Of a stretch of DNA of 64,000 nucleotides, positions 61,941-64,000 are shown in pieces. Made by a program: the position numbers and the translations under genes. Where the stretch lies: assembly GCF_044324875.1 (NCBI RefSeq), contig NZ_CP172185.1. One strand, 5' to 3'. The notes beneath the pieces were generated by a model. It was not told the origin of the DNA. It was given only the letters and a program-made list of their open reading frames with translations, and searched no databases. The stretch comes from Escherichia coli (GTDB lineage Bacteria > Pseudomonadota > Gammaproteobacteria > Enterobacterales > Enterobacteriaceae). Numbering within the stretch: position 1 is the stretch's first letter; every line of letters begins with the position of its first letter.

Positions 61941-62028
61941 GGTGAGGTGTCCGAGTGGCTGAAGGAGCACGCCTGGAAAGTGTGTATACGGCAACGTATC
62001 GGGGGTTCGAATCCCCCCCTCACCGCCA
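61941..62028 (+). tRNA. serX: tRNA-Ser (anticodon GGA)
   Basis: 88-nt sequence GGTGAGGTGTCCGAGTGGCTGAAGGAGCACGCCTGGAAAGTGTGTATACGGCAACGTATCGGGGGTTCGAATCCCCCCCTCACCGCCA with long variable arm and encoded CCA. Confidence 0.97.
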
Positions 62029-62036
62029 GATATTGA

Positions 62037-62069
62037 GCGCATGTTATTGTTTAACATGCGCTTTTTTTT
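62037..62069 (+). terminator. Rho-independent terminator of serX
   Basis: Hairpin gcgcatgtta-ttgtt-taacatgcgc followed by T8. Confidence 0.8.
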
Positions 62070-62180: not shown

Positions 62181-63023
62181 CTATACTGCCAGCATGTCAG
62201 GATAGTGTCTGACGATAATATCATTCAGTCTGTCAACCAGTTCCGGTTTCCTGAACGTGATATGCGCGGAGCCTTTCCTGAAGTATCTGATGCTGAACAT
62301 CTCATCCTCATAGCATGCTTCACCCTGAACGGACCGGATGTGCTCATCCAGACGAATGAGGATATTGTCCCGGTCAGTGGGTATGGGTTTACCGCTGAAC
62401 AGATACAGTATCCTTTCCAGGTCGGCAAGCCGCCCGGCCTGCGGACCATGGTTCAGACCAAATCCCCACCAGTCCCATTTCACCAGGTTGTTGAGGATAA
62501 TCTTACTGCCGAATTTACAGGGTGACCCGCTGTTGTGCGTCCGGCTCAGTCCTCTGAAGAGGTTGATGACGCCCCGTTCAGCCATTTCATCCCTGTTACG
62601 GTGCAGTTGTTCAGACGTACTCAGGATATTCGCTTCGCTGATTTCCGGAAAATTATCCTCCTCCAGTGAACGGTACCATTCATCACGCGCCTGTGCATCC
62701 ATCAGACTCAGCATCCCGGAGCGTTGCATCAGGTCACGCCAGATTTCACGGTCAAGGTTCCGGGTGATGGCTTTCATTGCGGTTTCCGGTTTTTCCATCA
62801 GCCAGCAGCCACAGCGAAAATCCTGTTTCACGGCCCAGTCCCGGGCCGTTTTACCTCCGATGCTTTCTGTCATTACTGAGATTTCTGCCAGTTGCCGGAT
62901 AAGCCTTTCGGTTTGTTGCAGTGCTTCATTCCGTACCGTCACAACGTGCCGGATACTGGTTGAGCAGATAACGTCCGTATGTCCGTTAAGCGTTTCCGGA
63001 CGGGAGACTGTGATATCAGACAT
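62181..63023 (-). CDS. Uncharacterised island protein, DUF4942-like
   Basis: 280-aa ORF; family assignment from memory of proteins found downstream of cbtA in CP4-type islands, not from a search. Confidence 0.7.
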   Translation of the reverse strand: MSDITVSRPETLNGHTDVICSTSIRHVVTVRNEALQQTERLIRQLAEISVMTESIGGKTARDWAVKQDFRCGCWLMEKPETAMKAITRNLDREIWRDLMQRSGMLSLMDAQARDEWYRSLEEDNFPEISEANILSTSEQLHRNRDEMAERGVINLFRGLSRTHNSGSPCKFGSKIILNNLVKWDWWGFGLNHGPQAGRLADLERILYLFSGKPIPTDRDNILIRLDEHIRSVQGEACYEDEMFSIRYFRKGSAHITFRKPELVDRLNDIIVRHYPDMLAV

Positions 63024-63119
63024 AACCGATATTCCTTTTTGCAGATAAATGAAAACGCCAGCCGTATTCGGACTGGCGTCAGTGGAATGAATCGTGGTGA
63101 GTGAGATGATGAGTGAGAC

Positions 63120-63317
63120 TCACAGGTTCTGGTGCTGAAGCTGCAGCTGGCGCAGGGTGCGGATATCCTCCCTGGCCTGTTCGATACAGGGCAACAGTGC
63201 TGCCGAATCCGTTTTATCCTCATCGTTGTCGAAGATAATGCAGGAGCCGCAGTCGATATTGTCCTGCAGCCACGCAATCAGAATATCCGGTGCTGTTTCT
63301 GTGGTTAATGATTTCAT
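63120..63317 (-). CDS. Small uncharacterised island protein (65 aa) with CxxC motif
   Basis: 3' portion of ORF-track entry 63120..63704, starting at internal Met (MKSLTTETAPDILIAWLQDNIDCGSC..), 20 nt downstream of the preceding gene stop; upstream part of that ORF overlaps the better-supported gene in another frame. Confidence 0.5.
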   Translation of the reverse strand: MKSLTTETAPDILIAWLQDNIDCGSCIIFDNDEDKTDSAALLPCIEQAREDIRTLRQLQLQHQNL

Positions 63318-63336
63318 ACGGTGTCTTTTGTCCCGG

Positions 63337-63825
63337 TTACCAGTCGAAAGTGGGAAAACCCGGCAGACATTCAGCGCCGGCATCCAGATGAATGAGACTG
63401 ACGCCATAACGCCGGATGAGAGTGACAACCAGACGACGAAACGTTTTTGACAGACCCAGGCGTTTAAGCCGCAGAGCCGGGTACGACCACGCATCAGTAC
63501 GTAACAGATATCCGCTGCCTGTAAAATGAATCCATTCTGATTCGCCGTTGTCATTCGTCTGATGCGACAGCGAGTACAGCCAGGCATTGTCCTGCTCCGT
63601 GATATGTGCGGTACTGCAGCGTATGCCGGTAAGGGCCGCAAATGGTGGCATGCAGTCTGCTGAGGTCCGGTCAGATTCATCAGCAACACGAAGGGAACAG
63701 CCATTATCGCAGACCACGTTAATCAGTTCAGCGAGATTAACACCATCGACGTCAGCGACAATGCGCCCCATGTTCAGTGCCTGTACGTTAACGCTGTCGG
63801 CTTCCAGTGTCAGGGACAGTTTCAT
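63337..63825 (-). CDS. Uncharacterised protein downstream of cbtA (YeeW-like position)
   Basis: 162-aa ORF whose ATG overlaps the cbtA stop in an ATGA junction, implying translational coupling with the toxin gene. Confidence 0.75.
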   Translation of the reverse strand: MKLSLTLEADSVNVQALNMGRIVADVDGVNLAELINVVCDNGCSLRVADESDRTSADCMPPFAALTGIRCSTAHITEQDNAWLYSLSHQTNDNGESEWIHFTGSGYLLRTDAWSYPALRLKRLGLSKTFRRLVVTLIRRYGVSLIHLDAGAECLPGFPTFDW

Positions 63826-64000
63826 GGTTTCACCTCACAGTGTTTACCCAGGGTGATGTTGTTCACCATTCTGTAGTGGCTGCGGGTCATCAGGCCGGTC
63901 GCCCGGCGGGCCCGGAGAATATCAATGCTGCTGATTAACTGCGATGAAGCTCCTGCGCTGAATCCCGGCTGGTCGGTACGCACCAGCGCGTATTTTTCCA
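63822..64000 (-). CDS. cbtA: Type IV toxin-antitoxin system toxin, CbtA/YeeV family, 3' end only (gene starts beyond window)
   Basis: Hand translation of reverse strand gives ..EKYALVRTDQPGFSAGASSQLISSIDILRARRATGLMTRSHYRMVNNITLGKHCEVKP-stop, closely matching the C-terminus of YeeV/CbtA-family toxins. Confidence 0.85.
   Translation of the reverse strand, partial: EKYALVRTDQPGFSAGASSQLISSIDILRARRATGLMTRSHYRMVNNITLGKHCEVKP

Follow-up and report, generated by a model that had tools for sequence, protein, structure and literature searches.

A full-length YeeW/DUF5983-family gene that overlaps the cbtA toxin gene in Escherichia coli shares its core domain with genes beside the transfer origin of conjugative plasmids

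Introduction

The toxin-antitoxin biology of CbtA/CbeA (YeeV/YeeU), a type IV system, has been worked out on the CbtA-family pairs of Escherichia coli K-12, which behave as pairs without an intact DUF5983 protein. In toxin-antitoxin-chaperone (TAC) modules a third gene is co-transcribed with the pair. Here we examine a gene that begins on the stop codon of cbtA in a 64,000-nucleotide stretch of E. coli DNA (NCBI RefSeq assembly GCF_044324875.1, contig NZ_CP172185.1), the whole of which we call the window. The gene lies at 63337..63825 on the minus strand and encodes a 162-aa protein of the YeeW/Aec77/DUF5983 family. An earlier note on this DNA, made from the sequence alone, had described it as an uncharacterised open reading frame (ORF) and had raised the possibility that it is a third component of the toxin-antitoxin module.

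The protein, its family and its association with cbtA are already known. One paper lists DUF5983 as a 'partner' that recurs downstream of CbtA across lineages of E. coli (PMC10790755), and its position downstream of cbtA has also been published elsewhere (bioRxiv 10.64898/2026.06.09.728211). Also known is the enrichment of the family, as family 72, in the leading regions of conjugative elements, with a median position of 2 and a false discovery rate (FDR) p of 6.6e-199 (Samuel & Burstein, Nature 2024; PMC11541004 supplement). The same table includes the DUF932/YubP/YafZ, DUF905/YkfF, KlcA and DUF4942 families. We found no functional study in the literature on yeeW, Aec77 and DUF5983. The present analysis joins the cbtA and leading-region strands and adds the conservation of the overlap across genera, the restriction of the N-terminal domain, and the finding that searches return no annotated structural relative.

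Results

The ORF list and the sequence bore out the arrangement described in the earlier note: an ORF of 162 codons, an ATGA junction, and cbtA as the upstream frame. The features of the gene and its junction are as follows.

63337..63825, minus strand: DUF5983/YeeW-family gene, 162 codons and a TAA stop (ORF list, Pfam, RefSeq identity, and the ratio of nonsynonymous to synonymous substitution rates, dN/dS)
63822..63825, minus strand: ATGA start/stop overlap of cbtA and the DUF5983 gene (read from the sequence)
63833..63836, minus strand: Shine-Dalgarno-like GAGG within the 3' end of cbtA, at a distance of 7 nt from the ATG (sequence; function presumed)
63822..64000, minus strand: 3' part of cbtA, the last 59 codons and the stop; the gene continues beyond the window (identity to NZ_CP080260.1)
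63649..63816, minus strand: N-terminal domain DUF5983_N, residues 4-59 (Pfam; beta-hairpin and helix in the AlphaFold2 model)
63340..63621, minus strand: C-terminal core domain DUF5983, residues 69-162 (motif C-S-T-A-H-I-T-x-x-D and terminal F-D-W)

The ATG at 63825..63823 and the TGA of cbtA at 63824..63822 together form the ATGA. The end of the window holds only part of the toxin gene, and the identity of the upstream frame was read from a longer sequence: a 2-kb stretch of the window recurs with 100% identity in E. coli strain 135 (NZ_CP080260.1) and several further genomes. In NZ_CP080260.1 RefSeq annotates the complete upstream protein, of 125 aa, as a CbtA family toxin. Its Pfam match is CbtA_toxin, at 1.9e-59, and it shares 83% identity with K-12 CbtA.

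The protein has two domains, of ~55 aa at the N terminus and ~95 aa at the C terminus (the core domain), joined by a linker of poor conservation. Both domains match Pfam models, DUF5983_N (PF25638; independent E-value 1.5e-29, model positions 1-56 of 56) and DUF5983 (PF19419; 5.5e-22, model positions 3-90 of 90), and the whole protein is 100% identical to RefSeq WP_000777671.1, a 'DUF5983 family protein'. UniProt relatives are named Aec77 or L0008-like. The gene is thus a full-length member of a catalogued family and not unassigned. The earlier statement that neither fold nor function could be assigned stands: the tools used here gave the family, through Pfam, RefSeq and the names YeeW and Aec77, but no function and no annotated fold. 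Neither NCBIfam nor PADLOC gave a match for the ORF or its two downstream neighbours; the only PHROGs match for the ORF is the unnamed family phrog_5003, and searches of Protein Data Bank (PDB) sequences, with the single sequence and with a profile, found nothing.

In an alignment of 34 sequences (A1), of which 10 match PF25638 and 29 match PF19419, the query carries all family motifs: S-T-A-H-I-T-x-x-D, W-I-H and the C-terminal F-D-W. His74 and Asp79 are nearly invariant, being conserved in at least 90% of the sequences, and the conserved residues of the C-terminal domain include C70, S71, H74, D79, W98, H100, Y106, K121, R130, H146, D148 and W162. H74 and D79, together with the conserved polar residues W98, H100, K121, R130, H146 and D148, suggest a catalytic or ligand-binding site. 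The AlphaFold2 model built on this alignment has a mean predicted local distance difference test (pLDDT) score of 86, with the C-terminal domain above 90, the N-terminal domain at 75-83 and a low-scoring linker. The modelled C-terminal domain has the order beta-alpha-beta-beta-alpha-alpha-beta followed by a conserved C-terminal tail. Structure searches of the AlphaFold database (AFDB) returned only DUF5983 members and no annotated fold match, so no function can be drawn from the fold.

The gene is intact and under selection. Among 31 orthologues from the window and related loci the median pairwise dN/dS is 0.16, with values of 0.158 for the N-terminal domain, 0.389 for the linker and 0.154 for the C-terminal domain. 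Orthologues occur in more than 25 genera, and the window copy is full length against these and against both Pfam models. The gene is also abundant. A megablast query of the 2-kb segment holding the 3' end of cbtA, the DUF5983, DUF957 and DUF4942 genes and tRNA-Ser matched 4,925 of 5,426 complete E. coli genomes (~90%), at a median of 3 places per genome; a place covering at least 80% of the query was present in 3,261 genomes. The family itself is narrow, because only 217 clusters match it when about 15 billion proteins are clustered at 50% identity and each cluster is searched through a single representative.

Scanning a single genome from each species gave 49 loci, essentially all of them from Enterobacterales. 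In these loci, and in tblastn seeds, the chromosomal module has the order DUF932 ... radC - DUF987 - cbeA - cbtA - DUF5983 - (DUF957) - DUF4942 and stands in CP4-44-like integrative islands of Enterobacterales, at the end next to the tRNA. cbtA lies upstream on the same strand in 40 of the scan loci, a co-occurrence figure that is biased, since the scan patterns (alignment A2) were built from the cbtA-linked subfamily. All full-length chromosomal matches sit after cbtA. A 4-nt NTGA overlap is kept in 34 of these 40 enterobacterial loci (29 ATGA, 2 GTGA and 3 TTGA); the other six comprise three with a 13-nt spacer and one each with a 17-nt overlap, a truncated cbtA and an insertion of ~860 bp. 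A purine-rich Shine-Dalgarno-like motif (GGAGG/GGGG) occupies the equivalent spot inside the 3' end of cbtA throughout the 40 loci. The conserved overlap and motif make it a well-supported inference that the DUF5983 protein is translated together with CbtA from one mRNA, and at the level of sequence the signs of the likely co-expression with the toxin, as proposed in the earlier note, are kept across genera.

Several contigs labelled Collinsella, Lachnospiraceae or Chryseobacterium (seven in all) carry the full enterobacterial module in an E. coli-like or Citrobacter-like form, at 85-89% or about 60% protein identity. They are most likely products of contamination or mis-binning.

The core domain is also a frequent passenger of plasmids. 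By tblastn it is present on 2,666 of 72,556 PLSDB plasmids, of which 2,185 are predicted to be conjugative and 2,320 come from Klebsiella. On pKpQIL-D1 (MOBF) the order is ...psiB-psiA-...-methylase-DUF932-DUF5983-|SLT (reverse)|-traM-traJ-traY-traA. Two Serratia MOBP/MPF_I plasmids read psiB-psiA-higBA-...-DUF932-DUF5983-|mobC (reverse)|-mobA-traI. The gene has the same position close to the transfer origin (oriT) on a Serratia MOBF plasmid and an F-like metagenomic contig, with similar contexts elsewhere. These orders place DUF5983 as the last leading-region gene beside oriT, transcribed towards it, in two unrelated relaxase classes. In agreement with the published table, the family is thus enriched among the ORFs nearest to oriT on its leading side, read in the T-strand orientation. 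DUF5983 usually comes just after DUF932 in the plasmid contexts inspected, none of which has cbtA annotated beside it. The island and pKpQIL versions are 61% identical for the DUF932 proteins and 35% identical for the DUF5983 C-terminal domains (E 1e-13); BLASTP detects no similarity between the DUF4942 protein of the window and the 'N-6 DNA methylase' of pKpQIL.

Phage genomes gave one DUF5983-family match among 50,697 records, on a 3.2-kb fragment, and this near-absence makes 'prophage protein' labels misleading. In K-12, CP4-44, CP4-6 and CP4-57 are annotated as 'cryptic prophages', yet DUF5983 has neighbours from leading-region families (DUF905, DUF932 and KlcA). The right arm of each of the three elements looks plasmid-derived, or derived from an integrative and conjugative element, rather than phage-derived.

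The gene is found behind partners other than cbtA. In five Yersinia loci the order is radC-DUF5983 (C-terminal domain only)-cbtA-cbeA-DUF4942, and the DUF5983 start overlaps the end of radC. This variant module has the toxin gene ahead of the antitoxin gene and lacks the DUF987 and DUF957 genes. In Leminorella grimontii (L055, 4564..5315) a C-domain-only DUF5983 gene starts with ATGA on the stop codon of cbeA; no cbtA was detected at this locus, which leaves an orphan antitoxin gene coupled to the DUF5983 gene. On a plasmid-like contig DUF5983 overlaps by 4 nt a DUF3085 gene, whose protein has no similarity to CbtA. C-domain-only copies also follow cbtA with ATGA in other lineages. With radC, cbeA, DUF3085 and cbtA as partners, the DUF5983 gene appears tightly packed behind whichever gene precedes it.

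The N-terminal domain has a different distribution. DUF5983_N is found only in genes that begin at a cbtA stop codon; it occurs on just 34 plasmids, and in 11 of the 12 rows listed it was accompanied by an overlapping cbtA or toxin annotation. A comparison by hhalign gave no support (probability 2%) for a relation of DUF5983_N to the N-terminal part of the 188-aa plasmid proteins. As regards the co-occurrence check proposed earlier, the N-terminal domain tracks cbtA, whereas the C-terminal domain is widespread without an adjacent annotated cbtA.

An intact DUF5983 gene is missing from all three CbtA-family pairs of K-12: CP4-44 carries the 64-aa YeeW, CP4-6 the ykfN pseudogene, and CP4-57 stops just after ypjF.

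The genes between DUF5983 and the edge of the island are as follows.

63120..63317, minus strand: DUF957 gene, 65 aa, 19 nt past the DUF5983 stop (RefSeq annotation of the identical sequence)
63054..63080, minus strand: terminator-like hairpin, a 10-bp stem and T-run after the DUF957 gene (consensus scan)
62181..63023, minus strand: methyltransferase-like DUF4942 gene, 280 aa, with no further island gene between it and the tRNA (RefSeq)
61941..62028, plus strand: tRNA-Ser(GGA), the junction of island and core genome (ARAGORN)

A cbeA-cbtA-DUF5983-DUF957 transcription unit probably ends at the hairpin at 63054..63080, ahead of the DUF4942 start. The DUF957 gene follows DUF5983 in 23 related loci, and the DUF4942 gene, whose product matches a PHROG DNA methyltransferase at 1.9e-16, is conserved after the DUF5983 and DUF957 genes in related loci. 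A strong terminator hairpin lies at 62035..62063 beside tRNA-Ser, towards whose 3' end the island genes are transcribed. Beyond tRNA-Ser in NZ_CP080260.1 are the core genes ghrA, ycdX and csg.

The DUF957 frame is open well ahead of its ATG, forming a 194-aa ORF (63120..63704, minus strand) with 136 codons upstream of that start, which overlaps the DUF5983 gene out of frame. We rejected a programmed frameshift or a DUF5983-DUF957 fusion because the relative frame varies (0, 1 or 2) among loci and because in most loci just 2-15 codons are open ahead of the DUF957 start. The 194-aa ORF looks lineage-specific. Judged by position only, the 65-aa DUF957 gene is probably the ANF00264 sequence, an AntiFam 'spurious' entry that has been argued to be real in a preprint that does not mention DUF957 (bioRxiv 10.64898/2026.06.09.728211). 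At the locus taken from NZ_CP080260.1 (L001), outside the window, a 214-aa 'hypothetical protein' (10683..11327 of that locus) is encoded between the DUF987 and YeeU-family antitoxin genes; K-12 CP4-44 has no comparable gene between yeeT and cbeA.

Discussion

We favour, with slightly better than even confidence, the reading that this gene belongs to an 'establishment' module derived from a leading region and common to conjugative plasmids and CP4-44-like islands, that it is packed with cbtA, and that it acts on the host or the mobile element rather than on the toxin-antitoxin pair. Its primary role would be in establishment, at the time when the element enters a new host or settles there, with anti-defence or host manipulation as candidate activities. 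Adjacency to cbtA would then be a matter of tight packing in an operon of leading-region descent and not of a dedicated toxin-antitoxin role, and the cbtA-specific N-terminal domain may adapt the protein to the cbtA operon.

A number of observations weigh against this reading. The window copy is chromosomal and is not known to lie beside an oriT, for which no search was made in the island, and its leading-region membership can be argued by homology of the module only. DUF5983_N is confined to genes that start on a cbtA stop, and the DUF5983 gene stays beside the cbtA/cbeA pair in the rearranged modules of Yersinia and Leminorella; both the restriction and the retained adjacency fit a functional tie to the pair. 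To the same side belong the bias of the co-occurrence figures and the failure of the AFDB searches to return anything beyond the family.

A bolder version of the establishment reading, which we hold only tentatively, makes the C-terminal domain an orphan-fold effector of early entry, the right arm of CP4-44-like islands a domesticated conjugative leading region (DUF905, DUF932, KlcA-like antirestriction, radC, cbeA/cbtA, DUF5983 and DUF4942), and the N-terminal domain the tie between this effector and a cytoskeletal toxin. Such an effector could be an enzyme or ligand binder acting through the His74/Asp79 site, either countering host defence or reprogramming the new host.

Given its position, one could envision that the protein is a true third component of CbtA/CbeA, binding or regulating CbtA or CbeA through its N-terminal domain. 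It might act as a stabiliser, as another antidote or as a switch for the timing of toxin action, and translational coupling would fix its stoichiometry to the toxin. The sequence does carry the expected signs of coupling, an ATGA overlap and a Shine-Dalgarno-like motif, and an NTGA overlap persists across genera, in 34 of 40 loci, including loci whose start codon is no longer ATG. The gene also remains beside cbtA or cbeA after module rearrangement, and recurs downstream of CbtA across E. coli lineages (PMC10790755). The strongest remaining support is the confinement of DUF5983_N to cbtA-coupled genes, together with the survival of that same domain in K-12 YeeW. Nevertheless, we consider this explanation unlikely. 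The core domain is common on plasmids (the 2,666 described above), with no cbtA annotated adjacent to it in the contexts inspected, and C-domain-only copies are coupled to cbtA as well, so that the N-terminal domain is dispensable for that position. Since the K-12 pairs function with no intact copy at any of the three, DUF5983 would not be required for toxicity or rescue. An AlphaFold2 model of CbtA joined by a glycine-serine (GS) linker to DUF5983 showed no confident packing (predicted template modelling score, pTM, 0.40; mean pLDDT 63), which is at most a weak argument given its shallow, genome-paired alignment of 22 sequences. The plasmids, the K-12 pairs and Leminorella all depart from obligate co-occurrence of DUF5983 with a toxin-antitoxin pair. 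The idea put forward in the earlier note is supported by the conserved overlap and the cbtA-specific N-terminal domain; the plasmid copies, the other partners and the K-12 pairs speak against it, and DUF5983 is probably not a dedicated third part of the toxin-antitoxin system.

Two biochemical proposals are compatible with any of these biological roles and do not exclude them. A Salmonella pangenome structure-classification preprint (10.1101/2024.01.30.577995) places a DUF5983 protein in the glyoxalase/bleomycin-resistance H-group and suggests that W, R and D residues may form a ligand site. On this proposal the C-terminal domain would be a small-molecule-binding or detoxifying domain like those of the glyoxalase/vicinal oxygen chelate (VOC) superfamily, with the toxoflavin lyase TflA as closest template. 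The conserved H, D, W, K and R residues would fit a pocket. However, the profile search of PDB sequences came back empty and the AFDB searches gave DUF5983 members only; we observed no significant structural similarity to VOC beta-alpha-beta-beta-beta modules and did not reproduce the glyoxalase assignment, which we regard as improbable. Slightly less credible again is a small protein that binds DNA or regulates transcription, acting on the operon or on host genes. The label 'transcriptional regulator' is attached to family 72 from HHpred and UniProt names (Samuel & Burstein, supplementary file 3), but the HHpred matches behind it are not significant, Pfam shows no helix-turn-helix or other DNA-binding domain, and the label seems to go back to 137 UniProt entries with the name 'CadC family transcriptional regulator'.

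Finally, a decaying or spurious ORF, whether a fragment of a larger gene (the outcome named in the earlier note as fatal to its proposal) or a chance frame in a cryptic element, can be set aside almost entirely: many database members of the family are fragmented or frameshifted, the K-12 copies are truncated or lost and two related loci (L043, L044) have premature stop codons, but the window copy is full length against both Pfam models and its orthologues, both of its domains are constrained and its AlphaFold2 model is confident overall.

The gene is not a rarity: ~90% of complete E. coli genomes carry it, usually in several copies, and the core domain adjoins oriT on resistance plasmids of Klebsiella in their thousands, among them the pKpQIL family of carbapenemase plasmids. 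A role in establishment or anti-defence would make it relevant to the settling of resistance plasmids and genomic islands in new hosts. Were it a modulator of CbtA instead, studies of the 'type IV' CbtA/CbeA pair in K-12 would have been made without a natural partner.

Among the known systems, the closest is YeeW of K-12 (b2006, CP4-44), a member of the same family whose start likewise overlaps the cbtA stop by 4 nt and which is 68% identical to the window protein over 50 aa. YeeW is a 64-aa remnant that aligns to the N-terminal domain only, and the window gene is therefore the intact, 162-aa two-domain form of YeeW. The CbtA/CbeA pair appears to share its operon with DUF5983, the toxin gene being coupled to it, but DUF5983 has no sequence or fold relation to either protein and the pair occurs in K-12 without an intact copy. 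TAC modules resemble the third-component model in having a third gene co-transcribed with the pair; they differ in that no SecB-like or other chaperone fold was detected for DUF5983, which is not restricted to a toxin-antitoxin context. The glyoxalase/VOC superfamily (TflA, PDB 3PKX) offers a small alpha+beta two-layer domain with conserved polar residues. The plasmid proteins, exemplified by WP_011977736.1 of pKpQIL-D1, have a homologous C-terminal domain, share the S-x-x-H...D and W-I-H motifs and have a neighbour of the same DUF932 family. They are either ~100-110 aa long and consist of the C-terminal domain only, or ~188 aa long with an unrelated N-terminal region. Their genes lie beside oriT with no cbtA annotated nearby, whereas the window gene is chromosomal, carries DUF5983_N and follows cbtA.

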